A DNA stretch of 49,765 nucleotides from Escherichia phage_vB_EcoD_Punny. Within the stretch, counting starts at the first letter, position 1; every line of letters starts with the position of its first letter. Positions 30,010 through 48,281 of the stretch are shown one piece after another. The translations under genes and the position numbers were made by a program. The stretch lies in the sequence record OL539444.1; one strand, 5' to 3'. The notes under the pieces were generated by a model that was not told the DNA's origin, ran no database searches, and was given only the letters and a program-made list of their open reading frames with translations.

Positions 30010-30747
30010 ATGGCTAAAGACATTCAGGACAAAACCACAATTGACACTTTCGCACAGGAAATGGATTTTCATGAGCTACAACACGGCAGATATTCAGATA
30101 TTGCGTTGCGTTCAGGTGGTCATTATCAGCCAGTTAGAGAAAATACTTTCCTTAAAGTTAGCGGCAACCGATACGCCGGAAGTAAAACGCCTGACGTAGT
30201 GCGCGATTTGTGGGAAACGCCAGATGAAATTGTTGAATATCTTGCTGAACGTTACGGGAAATATGATCTTGATGCAGCAGCAAGCGAAAACAACAAAAAA
30301 TGCGATAAGTTTTACAGCAAAGAGACAAACTGCTTAAAGCGTTGGTGGGGTAGCAATAAGCATGTTTGGTTAAATCCACCATACAGCAATCCAGATCCAT
30401 TTATCAAAAAAGCAATTGAGCAGATGGAGCACGGAAACCAGATTGATATTTTACTTCCGGCTGATAATTCAACTGCATGGTTTAGCGATGCGCAAAAGAA
30501 TGCAGCGGAAATAATCTGGATCACTGGCGAAACATGGGAGGATGACGGCAAGGAATATTCCCGCACTGGTCGATTAGCGTTTATTTCTGGCCTGACAGGT
30601 GAACCAGTACAAGGCAACAATAAAGGCAGTGTTATTTTTATCATGCGTCAACTTAAAGAAGGTGAGCAACAGCAAACACATTATGTGAAGATTAGCGATA
30701 TTTGCCCTTCTGTAAAAAATAAACGAGCCAAAGCGCGGAGTATTTAA
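30010..30747 (+). CDS. DNA N6-adenine methyltransferase (Dam-like)
   Basis: WLNPPYS matches the (D/N)PPY catalytic motif of amino-methyltransferases; 245 aa. Confidence 0.65.
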   Translation: MAKDIQDKTTIDTFAQEMDFHELQHGRYSDIALRSGGHYQPVRENTFLKVSGNRYAGSKTPDVVRDLWETPDEIVEYLAERYGKYDLDAAASENNKKCDKFYSKETNCLKRWWGSNKHVWLNPPYSNPDPFIKKAIEQMEHGNQIDILLPADNSTAWFSDAQKNAAEIIWITGETWEDDGKEYSRTGRLAFISGLTGEPVQGNNKGSVIFIMRQLKEGEQQQTHYVKISDICPSVKNKRAKARSI

Positions 30748-34706: not shown

Positions 34707-36287
34707 TTACCCCATTAACGCCGGATTGACATAAACAAATTTACCCACGCTGCAAACATAATTCTTTTCTTCAAGCATTGGCAATAATTGTTCCTCAATT
34801 CGTTTCATCACGCCTGATTGACCTGTAAACGGCTTAACCTTACGCGCACTTTCATAGATAGCTCTTGCATTGGTAACGCCTTTATTTTGACGTGAGATCT
34901 TAATGATGATTTCAATTAACTTGCTCATTTCGGCATCATCGCCAGCGTGACCGGAAGCATTCGCGGCGTTGATATATGTTTTGCTTAATTCGCTGAACAT
35001 CACCAAAGCCTCTTGCATTGTCTCAACTTCAATTTCTCGCGACTTTTGCGGCGTACCGTTTGGATTAAACCAATTGCGGATCGTGTGCAATACTGACGCA
35101 ATGCGGATCACTTGTTTATCCATTTTACCCAAAGCACCACGCAACATTGTATGTGAATATTTTCCGCCGTCTGCTAAATCCGGCTCTAATTGCTGGCGAG
35201 CAATATTAAGAACACGCATTGCAGAACGTGACGGCTTCAATACAACATTTTGCTCAGTCATGATGTTATGAATCAACTGGAAATATTGCGCCTTTAATTC
35301 TTTATCAACTGGCGTGTAATCAAGATCACCATTTTCATCAATAAATACACGCTCGCCTAACATTGTTTTTTCACGTACAAGCAAAAAACGTTCACTAACA
35401 CCGATACCCCGCGCCCCTGCATCCATGATCCCTTTTATCGTTTCATCCTGGGCAATTACGCTCATGCAGCCCAACGCAACAAAACTCATATTGTTTTCAG
35501 AGTTGGCGCGAGCTATTGAAACGTGTCCGGCGTCCCATGCTTTTAGAACCAATTCGCTGTTAGTCTTGCGATCACTATTAGCGTAAGTCAATCCGAGTAA
35601 GCTGTTGATGCTTGTTGCTTCATCGGAAATGACAGCAAAGTTACCCTGGCGATTGTTGATCTTTGCTAACCCTTCCGGCGTGGTGTCTGATACCGGAAAA
35701 ACGATATCGCACATTTTTTCTAACTTTTCCTCTAATTCCTCCTTTTCCTCAAACAACGCCGCTAACTCAGTGCCTGAACGTTCAGCTTTCAATTCCTTTT
35801 CAACGCCTTTTAATTTCGCTGAGATCTTCTTTCGCTCTTTCTTGCGTTGTTCGTTGATTCGCTCAACTTCACAGACCATTGGCGCAATAGCCAGGCTGTT
35901 GATTGCTGATTTACCAGTTGATGGCGGCTGACTGGTTACAACATAAAGCGCCGTTGGTTGTTCAGTGCCGTGGTACTCAACTTGGAAGCGTCCAACCATA
36001 GCGGCGGAAACGCAACCTATGAAATGCATATAGGCCGATGATTCAGGAAATTGAACAGATTGCGCAATGCTACGTGACAGTTTACCCACAACATCAACAT
36101 CATTACCCAAAGAGATCACAGGATAACGGTCATTAGCGCCGTTGATATCCTTCACAGGTTCCCAAAAGCTGGACGATTGGCGGTAGCCGTTCGACTGAAT
36201 AGCAACGCGAAGCGGCGATGTTCCCTGCGATTCTGCAATGGCTATAACTTGTTGAGGTGTCAATTTGTTGGTGTCAAAGTCAAACAT
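34707..36287 (-). CDS. P-loop NTPase-like protein (Walker A/B), function unknown
   Basis: 526 aa; PPSTGKS Walker A-like and VISDEAT Walker B-like motifs; charged coiled-coil insert. Confidence 0.4.
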   Translation of the reverse strand: MFDFDTNKLTPQQVIAIAESQGTSPLRVAIQSNGYRQSSSFWEPVKDINGANDRYPVISLGNDVDVVGKLSRSIAQSVQFPESSAYMHFIGCVSAAMVGRFQVEYHGTEQPTALYVVTSQPPSTGKSAINSLAIAPMVCEVERINEQRKKERKKISAKLKGVEKELKAERSGTELAALFEEKEELEEKLEKMCDIVFPVSDTTPEGLAKINNRQGNFAVISDEATSINSLLGLTYANSDRKTNSELVLKAWDAGHVSIARANSENNMSFVALGCMSVIAQDETIKGIMDAGARGIGVSERFLLVREKTMLGERVFIDENGDLDYTPVDKELKAQYFQLIHNIMTEQNVVLKPSRSAMRVLNIARQQLEPDLADGGKYSHTMLRGALGKMDKQVIRIASVLHTIRNWFNPNGTPQKSREIEVETMQEALVMFSELSKTYINAANASGHAGDDAEMSKLIEIIIKISRQNKGVTNARAIYESARKVKPFTGQSGVMKRIEEQLLPMLEEKNYVCSVGKFVYVNPALMG

Positions 36288-36314
36288 CTGAAAATCTCCT
36301 TCTTGTTGCCGCTA

Positions 36315-36358
36315 ATTATAACGGCAACATTCTACAGCCTTTTAGCAATTCGTGCTAT
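36315..36358 (-). promoter_or_regulatory. dyad-motif promoter unit M2
   Basis: On the minus strand ATAGCACGAATTGCTAAAAG, 18-nt gap, TATAAT inside GTTGCCG/CGGCAAC hairpin. Confidence 0.55.
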
Positions 36359-36603
36359 TTTATCGGCTCAACCCTGGCTAATAACTTTCCGTCTATAATG
36401 CTATGACATTCAAGAGTTTTAGGATCGAATGCAAGCGAACGATGGAACGTATGACCAATCAGCAAATATGAATGCTTATCCCTGATGCGATAGACCGTTT
36501 CACCTTCCTTTAATGACGATATCGCACTAAAAACAACCTTGTAACGGTATTTTTGCATGGCCTCAGAACGGTGAGGAATGTAATCTTTTTCCGGTAAACT
36601 CAT
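36355..36603 (-). CDS. hypothetical protein
   Basis: 82 aa ORF; stop is the TAG inside M2. Confidence 0.45.
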   Translation of the reverse strand: MSLPEKDYIPHRSEAMQKYRYKVVFSAISSLKEGETVYRIRDKHSYLLIGHTFHRSLAFDPKTLECHSIIDGKLLARVEPIK

Positions 36604-36962
36604 GAGTATTTGGCCTCAAACAGATAAGCACCGCCAGCGGCAGAGAATCCAACTTCTTCCCGATACAGCGTGAAACGGTCGCCGTTTTCGTCGAACACGT
36701 ATCCAGCAACAGCACCTAACACGCGGCCTTGTTCGATCTGGTAACGCTTATCAGCTTTGAAAGTTTTCTTGATCTGCATGGAATGGTTTACCCATGTGCA
36801 TTTAATGGTTTTGGTCTTAACATTTCGGAATGTTAATCCGGTTAAGTTGGCGTGAATCCATTTCCCATCTAACTTAACGAAAGTATCATCATTTTCGTCT
36901 ACCCGCGCTTTGTATAGGCGGTTATCAGATCCGATAAGTTTGATTGATTTGAATTTAGCCAT
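36600..36962 (-). CDS. hypothetical protein
   Basis: 120 aa ORF 32 nt downstream of the M3 -10; AAGGAGA RBS. Confidence 0.5.
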   Translation of the reverse strand: MAKFKSIKLIGSDNRLYKARVDENDDTFVKLDGKWIHANLTGLTFRNVKTKTIKCTWVNHSMQIKKTFKADKRYQIEQGRVLGAVAGYVFDENGDRFTLYREEVGFSAAGGAYLFEAKYS

Positions 36963-36994
36963 TTGATTTATCTCCTTTTGTTTTCGTTGAAATC

Positions 36995-37038
36995 ATTATG
37001 CCGGATACGTGATCCGGCGTTTTAACAAAAAGTGCTAT
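36995..37038 (-). promoter_or_regulatory. dyad-motif promoter unit M3
   Basis: On the minus strand ATAGCACTTTTTGTTAAAAC, 18-nt gap with CCGGAT/ATCCGG hairpin, CATAAT, leader TTCAACGAAAAC. Confidence 0.55.
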
Positions 37039-37730
37039 TTCTGATTTGCCAGGCATACAGCAAGCGCAAAGCCGCGCGGAGTGAGTGAGCGGATCAGCTT
37101 TGTTCGCTTAGACTTGCCGCCGAGCTTTTGCCAGCCTGGATTGTTGTTCCCTGTTGGCAATACTGCGTTTGTATCCGGCATTACAAAGCCGTTACCCGTC
37201 CAAAGACAAGTTTTTTTGGTGTACGCATCGCGAGCGGGAATGATTTCAGGAAAGTGAGGATGTTTATCATCTTCCGGCAACAGATCTCCAAACGCGCAAG
37301 GATGAAAGATAAAATCAGGTTGCCGCCACATTGACGACAGAACACTAACAGGATTCTCAATTATGTATGGAACGTTAAACCGATCCGCAATATTGGCAGC
37401 AATCTTTGCCGTTTCAACCGCCTTTTTCTGGAAGTCTGGATCACGTTCACGCTTTGCTGCAAAGTGACGCGATCCGCTAACAGCTAAATCAGTGCATGGA
37501 GGGAATGCAATAATAAAATCTGGAGTGCCAAAGACGCGCATCATTGCGTTATGCTGGAATGATAATCCGATCCACTCATTCAAATAAACGATGTTGGGAT
37601 GAGTCACGCGCACTGATTGGTAATCACCATGATCAGCACCGTCGAAATTAAAGCACAGCACCTTGTGACCACGTTCAGCCCACGGCAACGCAGCATAACC
37701 AGAACCATCAAATAGTGAGAAAATAAGCAT
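37035..37730 (-). CDS. DNA cytosine-C5 methyltransferase-like protein with divergent motifs
   Basis: LFDGSG (motif I-like), FPPCTDLAVSG (PCQ-box-like but Thr for Gln), IENP (ENV-like). Short at about 231 aa. Start ATG 37730 with AAGGA RBS. Confidence 0.4.
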   Translation of the reverse strand: MLIFSLFDGSGYAALPWAERGHKVLCFNFDGADHGDYQSVRVTHPNIVYLNEWIGLSFQHNAMMRVFGTPDFIIAFPPCTDLAVSGSRHFAAKRERDPDFQKKAVETAKIAANIADRFNVPYIIENPVSVLSSMWRQPDFIFHPCAFGDLLPEDDKHPHFPEIIPARDAYTKKTCLWTGNGFVMPDTNAVLPTGNNNPGWQKLGGKSKRTKLIRSLTPRGFALAVCLANQK

Positions 37731-37928
37731 GTTTAAATCCTTTCTGTATGACCTTGTAAGGCGTTTTGTTTGTAGGTGTGGCAATCGTATTGGTTACGGC
37801 CTGAAATCGCGACATAATGCGAAACAGGCCGCTATTTTTTACTTACAGAATGGGCATGTTGTTTTATCCCAGCTTCCTCCGTGTTTTGGACAGCAAATTT
37901 TTTCGATAGGTGTCATTTTAAATACTCC

Positions 37929-38153
37929 TTAGAATGGGAAACAACGCTTGCAAGATGGATCGAAGTTACAACCGCAATCATTGATTATTGCGTTAGGATC
38001 AGCAAGCATCACGCTACTTTCTTGATCCATATCCATAGCGCCTAATGCGTCATCAAGCGTTATTTCAAGATAGGCAACTTTAAGCGCCCATTCCTTGTTG
38101 AGTCCAGCCGCCTCCGCTTCATGTAGGCGAGCAAAGAAAGCATCTTGAACCAT
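37929..38153 (-). CDS. hypothetical Cys-containing small protein
   Basis: About 74 aa, C-terminal CGCNFDPSCKRC. Confidence 0.4.
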   Translation of the reverse strand: MVQDAFFARLHEAEAAGLNKEWALKVAYLEITLDDALGAMDMDQESSVMLADPNAIINDCGCNFDPSCKRCFPF

Positions 38154-38154
38154 A

Positions 38155-38376
38155 TCAACCCCACTTCTCAATAAACATGCTCATTTCGTCAATCATCGCG
38201 TAAGCATCGCTTTCAGTCATGCGACGGATTCTTCCGCCTGGGTGTTCGCCAACAGCGTAACCAGTTTTTACGCGGGTAATCGTTAACTGATGGAATCAAG
38301 AATCGCGATCCATTTTCAAAACTACTTTCCCGTGAGCTTTGACAATGTTCATGATGGATTCAGTTTTCAGTTTCAT
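38155..38376 (-). pseudogene. small ORF interrupted by an in-frame TGA
   Basis: ATG 38376 with GGAGA RBS 31 nt after the M4 -10; reading frame open for 73 codons except a TGA at 38296-38298. Confidence 0.3.
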
Positions 38377-38407
38377 TTTTGATTCTCCATTTTGTTTATG
38401 TGAAAGT

Positions 38408-38451
38408 ATGATACCAATCAGAGCGATATCGTTTTTAGCAATTCGTGCTAT
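38408..38451 (-). promoter_or_regulatory. dyad-motif promoter unit M4
   Basis: On the minus strand ATAGCACGAATTGCTAAAAA, 18-nt gap, TGgTATCAT. Confidence 0.5.
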
Positions 38452-38598
38452 TTACGGCGATAAACGGATATCCTGTTAAATCTGCATTTCTATAACGTGC
38501 AGACCTAACCCAACAGCCGCCTTTGCTCATAATTAAAGCGTTTTTATGGTGAATGTTCACGCGGTAAATTCTTCCGGTTTTTATGTTTTTGAAGTAGG

Positions 38599-38832
38599 TC
38601 ATAATTTAACCTCATGATACTCTATAAACTCTTGCACATATGCGCATTCGCGCGGCGACTCCTGGCCTTTTATCACCTCACAGCCACCATTAAACAGATA
38701 GCAGTGCTGGCAAAGGTTGCCACCTGCGTTTTCCTCAGCGATCTGAATTCCGGTACACAAACCGCCACCAAACCTATGAGGAAAATCGTAAGCCTGGCAG
38801 CGGCACGTTGCTTGATTCCGCTTACGTTTCAT
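38599..38832 (-). CDS. Cys-rich small protein (possible zinc-binding)
   Basis: 77 aa with CRC, C...C..C and CQHC clusters. Confidence 0.4.
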   Translation of the reverse strand: MKRKRNQATCRCQAYDFPHRFGGGLCTGIQIAEENAGGNLCQHCYLFNGGCEVIKGQESPRECAYVQEFIEYHEVKL

Positions 38833-39113
38833 TAGATGTTCTCGCTAATAAACTGGATAACCTGGCGAAGATGTTTTTCATCTTTAATTAATGCTGGCAA
38901 TTCTTCCATAACTTCTTTTTTAAGATAAATGTTTGCATTCCAGGTGAATGAGCCATCACCATTTACGCGGTAAGAGCAAAGCCATTCGCAATCATTATCA
39001 GATTCCCAAATGCACAGCGTTTCAAATTCTTCAAACTTGTTGTAACCCGTTTCAATGCTTAACTCAATGCCACGTTTGCCAGCGAAGTTAGTAGTTGTTT
39101 TTGATACCATCAT
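38832..39113 (-). CDS. hypothetical protein
   Basis: 93 aa ORF 31 nt downstream of the M5 -10; GGAGA RBS. Confidence 0.5.
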   Translation of the reverse strand: MMVSKTTTNFAGKRGIELSIETGYNKFEEFETLCIWESDNDCEWLCSYRVNGDGSFTWNANIYLKKEVMEELPALIKDEKHLRQVIQFISENI

Positions 39114-47200: not shown

Positions 47201-47698
47201 ATGAAAGCTAAAAATGATTTTTATAACTACCTGACAAAAGGCCGTGACTATACCGTTTTGAATAGCATAGATACTCTTTACCTGGTTGTTGCTGATAATG
47301 GCGTTAGAGTTTGGCTTGATAAAACTCTTTTCGAAAGCGAGCACCTAAGCAACGCAAAGCGGATCGCAGATGAAGCAAGCGCATTAGCAGAGCGTGAACG
47401 AATTCGCGATATAGTAGCGGAGCAGGTTAGAAATTCATGTTCGCCTGGTGGCGATATCTTCAAATCAATGCGCGGTGAAATGACGGTTGGAATTCAAGAT
47501 CGCGTAATTTCAAAGTCAGTTGATTCTGTAATTGAGAATGCGCGATTCAATGCGTTGATTAACTCAGAGCATAACGAATACGTCAAAGCATTAGAGCAAC
47601 TGCGTGAAGTGCTGCGAGTGCCGGAAGGTGAAAATATTGTGACTCATGCAAAGGTTGTAAGAGCGTTGGCTGATGCGCTGATTGGTCTGCAAAAATAG
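47201..47698 (+). CDS. hypothetical protein
   Basis: 165 aa ORF with AAGGAGAA RBS; stop is the TAG in the next motif. Confidence 0.5.
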   Translation: MKAKNDFYNYLTKGRDYTVLNSIDTLYLVVADNGVRVWLDKTLFESEHLSNAKRIADEASALAERERIRDIVAEQVRNSCSPGGDIFKSMRGEMTVGIQDRVISKSVDSVIENARFNALINSEHNEYVKALEQLREVLRVPEGENIVTHAKVVRALADALIGLQK

Positions 47699-47738
47699 CA
47701 CTTTTTGTTAAAACTTCCGCGAGGGCATTTGTTAAAGT
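47695..47738 (+). promoter_or_regulatory. dyad-motif promoter unit P12
   Basis: ATAGCACTTTTTGTTAAAAC, 18-nt gap, TGtTAAAGT in the loop of GAGGGCA/TGTCCTC. Confidence 0.55.
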
Positions 47739-47772
47739 GTCCTCATTGAAGCGAAACACGGAGATTTAGGAA

Positions 47773-47982
47773 ATGGCTGTATACACTGGCAAAATGTTTG
47801 AAAGCGAAAACCCGATTTACGGCGGCACTTATGAGCTAATCATTGATGAAGATCGTGTAATCCTGGCTGACGACGATAACCAGGAATATTACGAAGTAGA
47901 AGCCGATAAATGGGATAACGATGTTATGTTTCTTGTTGATAATAGCCACATCAAGTTTTATGCAGTGGAGGAAGAAGAATGA
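47773..47982 (+). CDS. hypothetical protein
   Basis: 69 aa acidic ORF. Confidence 0.45.
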   Translation: MAVYTGKMFESENPIYGGTYELIIDEDRVILADDDNQEYYEVEADKWDNDVMFLVDNSHIKFYAVEEEE

Positions 47983-48230
47983 TCACAATCAACCTATCAG
48001 AAGAACAAGCGAAATCATTGTTGCGCGGCCTGGGCTGGCGAATGGGTAGCGGTAGCGAGGCGGTTGTAAACATCAAAGAGGAAGTAGCAAAAGAGCTTTT
48101 TGCACAGCTTGAGCATAAACTGATGCCAGCATCAACAAGCGCGGCGGAGTTGGCAGTATGGCGGCATGAAAACGGCCTTAATGAAATGGACGTTGAGAAG
48201 TGGAAACGTAAAAAACGGAAAAGCTGTTGA
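47979..48230 (+). CDS. hypothetical protein
   Basis: 83 aa ORF. Confidence 0.4.
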   Translation: MITINLSEEQAKSLLRGLGWRMGSGSEAVVNIKEEVAKELFAQLEHKLMPASTSAAELAVWRHENGLNEMDVEKWKRKKRKSC

Positions 48231-48281
48231 TAAGGTTGGTTTTGTTGGTCGCTGTATTATGGTTAACGTGGAGAAGTTCAG

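Follow-up and report, generated by a model that had tools for sequence, protein, structure and literature searches.

Phage K42, a KarlJaspers-type member of the Drexlerviridae, carries a 711-bp 'dcm' gene that was disrupted in four of four escapers described in a preprint on retron Ec86. Expression of K42 dcm was toxic only in the presence of the retron. By LC-MS, the wild-type K42 Dcm produced high levels of 5-methylcytosine (5mC) on the msDNA of Ec86, which a C82A/E128A/K175A/K176A quadruple mutant did not raise, and mutation of the CCTGG site in the msDNA abolished Ec86 defence. The CCWGG specificity of the enzyme was taken over from the name 'Dcm' in that study, the mutated retron site being its one support. 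The methylation work has since been cited in ten later papers, and one later paper treats K42 Dcm as the accepted trigger of Ec86; being the phage factor sensed by this retron (Ec86/Eco1) is the family's published role.

Two further systems bear on the protein analysed here. Klebsiella phage KP36 was the subject of a 2013 study, in which its DNA, with 155 CCWGG sites, was completely resistant to EcoRII; the phage was said to be without a cytosine methyltransferase, and the methylation was credited to the host. CmoX, a phage enzyme of the C5 type, makes 5-carboxymethylcytosine, its cofactor carboxy-SAM being selected by an arginine at the position of HhaI Asn304.

We analysed a stretch of 49,765 nucleotides from Escherichia phage vB_EcoD_Punny (OL539444.1), referred to as the window. 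Over positions 36000-39000 it shares 99.9% identity with Citrobacter phage vB_CfrD_BlueShadow and ~99% with phage Stevie, two members of Tlsvirus (T1-like, Drexlerviridae). The window phage belongs there too, and the gene order is that of the annotated Stevie genome, with an offset of ~163 bases in the methyltransferase region. The open reading frame that a first-pass annotation, made from the letters alone, had singled out as a short C5-cytosine methyltransferase-like protein is present and intact, and lies on the minus strand, a detail that annotation had not given (Table 1). Its start codon is an ATG at 37730 and its stop codon a TAG. An in-frame TTG upstream, at 37784, would extend it to 249 aa, and the BlueShadow GenBank record starts there; the ATG is preferred, since a Shine-Dalgarno sequence precedes it and the homologues and the Stevie annotation begin at it. 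We infer that this gene probably codes for an active DNA cytosine-5 methyltransferase, orphan and SAM-dependent, from a family of compact phage enzymes (~230 aa), most likely with CCWGG as target. GenBank already lists an identical protein, named a putative DNA cytosine methyltransferase, and the role of its family has been published; therefore no novelty is claimed for the identification.

The 236-aa 'Dcm-like C5 cytosine methyltransferase' of KarlJaspers is 64% identical to the window protein over its full length and syntenic with it, lying upstream of the same helicase. Residues C82, E128, K175 and K176 of K42 Dcm, those mutated in the retron work, are C79, E125, K172 and K173 of the window protein. 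The K42/KarlJaspers enzyme and the window protein thus share family, the slot beside a DUF3987-type helicase, the mutated residues and a Dam gene in the genome, but the former comes from a Hanrivervirus rather than a Tlsvirus, with another host range, and is five residues longer. Formation of 5mC, triggering of the retron and resistance to EcoRII would carry over to the window protein by analogy with these published relatives.

Table 1. Features of the methyltransferase locus in the window and in related genomes.
Feature	Sequence	Position	Strand	Remarks
Compact Dcm-like DNA cytosine-5 methyltransferase CDS	window	37035..37730	-	231 aa; PHROG 757
Shine-Dalgarno AAGGA	window	37738..37742	-	7 nt 5' of ATG; RBS annotated at the same place in Stevie
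Motif I, SAM-binding loop, L6-F-D-G-S-G11	window	37698..37715	-	HMMER alignment to motif I of DNMT3B and M.HaeIII
Motif IV, F76-PPCTDLAVSG-86	window	37473..37505	-	putative catalytic Cys79, codon 37494-37496
Motif VI, E125-N126-P127, ENV-type glutamate	window	37350..37358	-	family conservation
22-bp repeat copy	window	37019-37040	-	overlaps methyltransferase stop codon; followed by GC-rich hairpin GCCGGATCACGTATCCGGC
22-bp repeat, other copies	window	21583, 27195, 29653, 31002, 34175, 39170		
22-bp repeat, other copies	window	40348, 41992, 43694, 45207, 47693		
Phage Dam-type N6-adenine methyltransferase	window	30010..30747	+	intact 245-aa ORF; PF05869, E=2.3e-63
gp74, family member	KP36 (L055)	47552-48244	-	46% identity, E=7e-68
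188-aa HNH-endonuclease ORF	L035	6147-6713	+	exactly replaces Dcm-like gene of L037 (8303-8971)

The neighbours of the methyltransferase gene in the window are small proteins of unknown function and the helicase. A chromosomal E. coli copy of the family sits in a lambdoid prophage, near a Dam gene, NinG, RusA and Q. No restriction endonuclease partner was found adjoining the methyltransferase gene, either in the window or at the prophage copy, and the enzyme is therefore an orphan. A scan for promoters and terminators around the gene returned nothing above chance. Also present in the window is a 22-bp repeat, AAATAGCACTTTTTGTTAAAAC, in 12 copies (at most 3 mismatches; 0 expected by chance), each at a gene boundary and in the orientation of the local operon; the Stevie annotation lists it as repeat_region. 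These repeats look like putative regulatory or transcription-unit punctuation signals. The second enzyme named in the first-pass annotation, a Dam-like methyltransferase, is borne out by an intact reading frame and its Pfam match (Table 1).

A profile search, the check proposed with that annotation, places the protein end to end in PHROG 757, 'DNA methyltransferase' (E=7.4e-85; query residues 1-230 against positions 15-219 of the 247-position profile); scans of Pfam and NCBIfam gave no match to the query even at E<=10. The family is large, with 5063 homologous protein clusters at E<=1e-3 (clustered at 90% identity), 2068 representatives at 50% identity and tblastn matches in 1538 phage records, and it spans Drexlerviridae, Dhillonvirus, Vequintavirinae and others; a reading frame with so many homologues is no chance one. 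Nearly all members measure 210-260 aa and cover the whole profile; the short length is therefore the native architecture and does not reflect truncation. Against PF00145 (cut-off 22), three members with 59-60% identity to the query reach 24.7-28.5 bits, over the N-terminal ~100 residues only, and a match to PF00145 at E<0.01 is seen in only 2 of 116 diverged members. Searched against PDB sequences, the single protein returned chance matches only; a profile of the close family found marginal matches to DNMT3B and HaeIII (E ~0.04, motifs I-IV only), which were lost with a 116-sequence profile, the only C5-methyltransferase that this wider profile touched being DNMT2, at a non-significant E of 0.47. 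Because Pfam and NCBIfam are blank for the query, its assignment to the superfamily rests on the fold and on short motifs.

The AlphaFold2 model, built on a 24-sequence alignment, is of high confidence (pLDDT 89.7, pTM 0.88) and has the class I SAM-methyltransferase fold of the C5 type. The first 50 Foldseek matches are all C5-methyltransferases, DNMT3B being the best and CmoX the second-best, which upholds the original C5-cytosine-methyltransferase-type reading. The catalytic domains of known enzymes align with about 175-189 of the 231 residues, and the ~45 left over form short loops, at about 143-173 and 180-207. So small a remainder cannot make up the classical small domain; there is therefore no separate target-recognition domain, as had been suspected from length. 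The best fold match, DNMT3B, is the enzyme with the smallest target-recognition region.

Set beside known enzymes, the window protein is distinct from each. Identity to the catalytic domain of DNMT3A/DNMT3B, the de novo C5-methyltransferases of eukaryotes, is only 14-17%, and the window protein is ~55 residues shorter; DNMT3 reads CpG, forms a tetramer with DNMT3L and has ENV, whereas the window protein has ENP and appears to protect CCWGG. Unlike M.HhaI and M.HaeIII (PF00145), it fails the PF00145 model and is without a separate small domain between motifs VIII and IX. CmoX (PDB 8yf3) is a 333-aa enzyme with a GC target that uses carboxy-SAM and is encoded beside CmoA, in contrast to the 5mC made by the orthologue of the window protein. 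With E. coli Dcm and M.EcoRII it would share target, product and protection against EcoRII, but it is half the size of Dcm (472 aa), without the large target-recognition domain and without a vsr partner. Orthology with Dcm was considered and rejected: when the family profile was compared with K-12 Dcm by hhalign, 26 columns around the PC motif aligned at a probability of 1%, which is not real homology. 'Dcm-like' therefore refers to function only.

Evidence on specificity comes from site counts. The window holds 115 CCWGG sites, against 59 expected from base composition and 98 under a Markov model; GATC occurs 290 times, with 185 expected. Palindromes are otherwise very strongly avoided in it: 22 of the 64 six-base palindromes are absent (GGATCC, CTGCAG, GGTACC and AAGCTT among them), and observed/expected counts are 0/59 for GGWCC, 0/44 for GGSCC, 1/44 for CCSGG and 17/185 for CTAG. 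Since CCSGG and GGWCC are still avoided, they are apparently not protected by phage methylation. The two words over-represented despite this avoidance, GATC and CCWGG, are those that the phage's own two methyltransferases would cover.

We compared 49 loci, namely 46 related loci anchored on the helicase plus T1, KarlJaspers and JeanPiccard, and scored both methyltransferase genes in each by tblastn; 35 carry the Dcm-like gene. Among T1-like phages, each gene comes and goes independently of the other. An unbiased scan scored several hundred words: every word of 4 or 5 bases, palindromic 6-mers and interrupted palindromes. For the presence of Dam, GATC words came first, as expected of a positive control: GATC observed/expected ratios are mostly 1.1-1.7 in Dam carriers (range 0.67-1.72) and mostly 0.18-0.64 in loci without Dam, with three loci (L014, L017, L026) showing no Dam match yet ratios of 1.1-1.5. 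That GATC tracks Dam indicates that the approach works. For the Dcm-like gene, CCWGG was the top word by excess of carriers over non-carriers in observed/expected ratio (Mann-Whitney p=4.9e-6, a statistic that ignores shared ancestry), and the difference held with Dam as covariate (t=5.5 over the 49 loci, again ignoring shared ancestry). JeanPiccard (L006, 30000-47149; Braunvirinae) has neither gene in the syntenic region, and 25 GATC against 64 expected.

The Dcm-like carriers have CCWGG ratios of 1.16-2.29, and none is depleted. Non-carriers are more varied. Observed against expected counts are 0 vs 28 in L047, 7 vs 30 in L045 and 1 vs 19 in L029, the last counted as a non-carrier with only ~50 bases available upstream of the helicase, the gene's usual place; several others, T1 included, have near-normal CCWGG (ratios of 0.8-1.45). 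The purge is clearest in Escherichia phage vB_EcoS_IME347 (L047/L053, NC_047960), whose whole genome holds 4 CCWGG against 95 expected and, searched throughout, no trace of a member of the Dcm-like family; Dam is present there, with 284 GATC against 195 expected. We infer that the window protein most likely targets CCWGG.

One locus without the gene and with normal CCWGG, L035, was considered as a counter-example and set aside: its Dcm-like gene has recently been swapped for an HNH endonuclease (Table 1), the genome being otherwise 93-98% identical to that of a sibling, L037, which keeps the gene. L035 is a metagenomic, Webervirus-like genome. Phage T1 (L005, NC_005833), which has Dam and is without the Dcm-like gene, likewise has an HNH gene there. 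The slot of the Dcm-like gene seems to be a hotspot of homing-endonuclease traffic. Also of note, the T1-like phages IME347 and L027 (tentatively IME542) were apparently isolated on E. coli BL21(DE3), and both are without the gene. BL21(DE3) carries retron Ec86 natively, and the absence of the gene from phages isolated on this strain fits counter-selection by the retron (n=2).

The KP36 case can be read anew in this light. Our recount of its genome (NC_029099) gave 155 CCWGG, the published number, and 302 GATC, and its gp74 is a member of the family (Table 1). The host of KP36 has Dcm too, so that resistance to EcoRII is no proof of a phage-encoded activity; even so, gp74 is more likely the source of that resistance than the host Dcm.

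An active C5-methyltransferase whose specificity differs from CCWGG or is broader, such as a CCW/CWG core or additional sites, is unlikely, although several observations speak for it. The protein has no target-recognition domain, its closest fold match, DNMT3B, reads only 2 bp, and its residues 186-200 are the most variable segment of the family. MG1655, the strain of the K42 study, has its own dcm, but there was little 5mC on msDNA in the absence of the phage enzyme, and only the latter raised it and triggered Ec86; the phage enzyme could therefore have another or a wider target. However, CCWGG came first among the several hundred words of 4-6 bases that could have separated carriers from non-carriers, the neighbouring words CCSGG and GGWCC remain strongly avoided in the window, and KP36 DNA is wholly EcoRII-resistant, all of which argue for CCWGG itself.

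The motifs quoted in the first-pass annotation, LFDGSG, FPPCTDLAVSG and ENP, are all present exactly as given, and follow in the order I (SAM loop), IV (Pro-Cys) and VI (Glu-Asn-x), as in the C5-methyltransferase superfamily. Motif IV aligns with the PC motif of DNMT3B (PCNDLS) and with that of E. coli Dcm. Conservation was assessed in 116 diverged representatives of the family, only 31-54% identical to the query. Motif IV is well kept (P77 in 107/116, C79 in 108/116, T80 in 100/116, G86 in 115/116), as is motif VI (E125 in 113/116, N126 in 108/116, P127 in 114/116), and positions also kept in at least 90% are P77, G86, K93, D168, Y170, K172, T174, W177, R214, P218 and G220. The close family shows no variation at G9, S10 and G11 of motif I, and distant members have (F/Y)D-x-(T/S)-G; the first of these glycines, G9, is usually replaced by an aromatic residue (Y/R/H/F) in the wider family. 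Towards the C-terminus, a Y-x-K-K-T-C-L-W segment appears to replace QxRxR, and R-S the GN of motif X; neither the close-family nor the 116-sequence profile gave a sequence mapping of K172-K173 and R214-S215 to motifs VIII and X.

A catalytically dead decoy, or a DNA-binding anti-restriction protein that has retained the methyltransferase fold, is very improbable. The first-pass annotation had raised it because threonine stands for glutamine in the PC box and ENP for ENV, and one could add the missing Pfam match and Asn28, which ends strand 2 at a position that is mostly aspartate in distant members (Asp in 103 of 116 members, Asn in the clade of the query). The substitutions do not bear this out. 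T80 and P127 are near-invariant, and are therefore a family signature, reflecting purifying selection on the active site rather than decay; DNMT3B, which does make 5mC, is likewise without the glutamine, its PC box (PCNDLS) continuing with Asp-Leu. The cysteine, the glutamate and the SAM loop are conserved across thousands of homologues, and the 64%-identical orthologue raised 5mC, an effect that, like its effect on the retron, was gone in the quadruple mutant of the cysteine, the glutamate and two lysines. Carriers also keep CCWGG, as expected of chemically protected sites.

The suggestion of altered chemistry, or of a product other than 5mC, fares no better, and a non-methyl product such as 5-carboxymethylcytosine, made from carboxy-SAM in the manner of CmoX, is hardly plausible. 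In its favour, the near-invariant Arg214-Ser215 may occupy the position of HhaI Asn304, in a putative alignment, and E. coli CmoA could supply carboxy-SAM. Against it, the annotation of the near-identical phage Stevie lists neither CmoA nor a CmoY ligase gene, whereas CmoX genes typically adjoin CmoA. DNMT3 enzymes, which make 5mC, also carry Arg-Ser (GRS) in the corresponding motif. The orthologue yielded 5mC by LC-MS, with the effect lost in the quadruple mutant, and the EcoRII resistance of KP36 fits ordinary Dcm-type methylation. An RNA (tRNA) cytosine-5 methyltransferase of the Dnmt2 kind can be dismissed as barely credible, for although DNMT2 was the only C5-methyltransferase touched by the wide-family profile, and that non-significantly, DNA enzymes outscore it (DNMT3B, 13.6), the orthologue put 5mC on msDNA, and a DNA word, CCWGG, tracks the presence of the gene.

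For a DNA cytosine-5 methyltransferase, we envision the following course of events. SAM would be held by the LFDGSG loop, Cys79 in the PC motif would attack a flipped-out cytosine at C6, Glu125 in the ENP motif would protonate N3, and the methyl group of SAM would pass to C5 of the cytosine. The target would most likely be the inner cytosine of CCWGG, a site shared with the host Dcm. The phage Dam, acting on GATC, and the Dcm-like enzyme may together methylate replicating phage DNA as an anti-restriction pair, such that progeny would be shielded from EcoRII-type restriction regardless of the dcm status of the host. The cost would be that Dcm-like activity is sensed by retron Ec86/Eco1.

A further reading is quite possible, if short of probable: with its ~230 aa, the family may represent a minimal C5-methyltransferase of distinct structure, invisible to PF00145, that reads the 5-bp CCWGG without a target-recognition domain. 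In that event CCWGG may be read through conserved loops (D168-A-Y-x-K-K-T-C-L-W177, P144 and H157-P158) or through dimerisation, a mode of CCWGG recognition that, if real, would be absent from the solved structures of C5-methyltransferases. That the conserved Arg214 also lets the family accept carboxy-SAM is far less likely.

Since Pfam and NCBIfam miss a very common phage enzyme, it is often left 'hypothetical', and it was overlooked in KP36. At ~230 aa it is among the smallest sequence-specific C5-methyltransferases, of potential interest to structural biologists and tool builders. In T1-like phages, the presence or absence of the gene predicts whether CCWGG is kept or purged and, probably, how sensitive the phage is to EcoRII-type restriction and to retron Eco1, a point that matters for the choice of phage and host in therapy and engineering.
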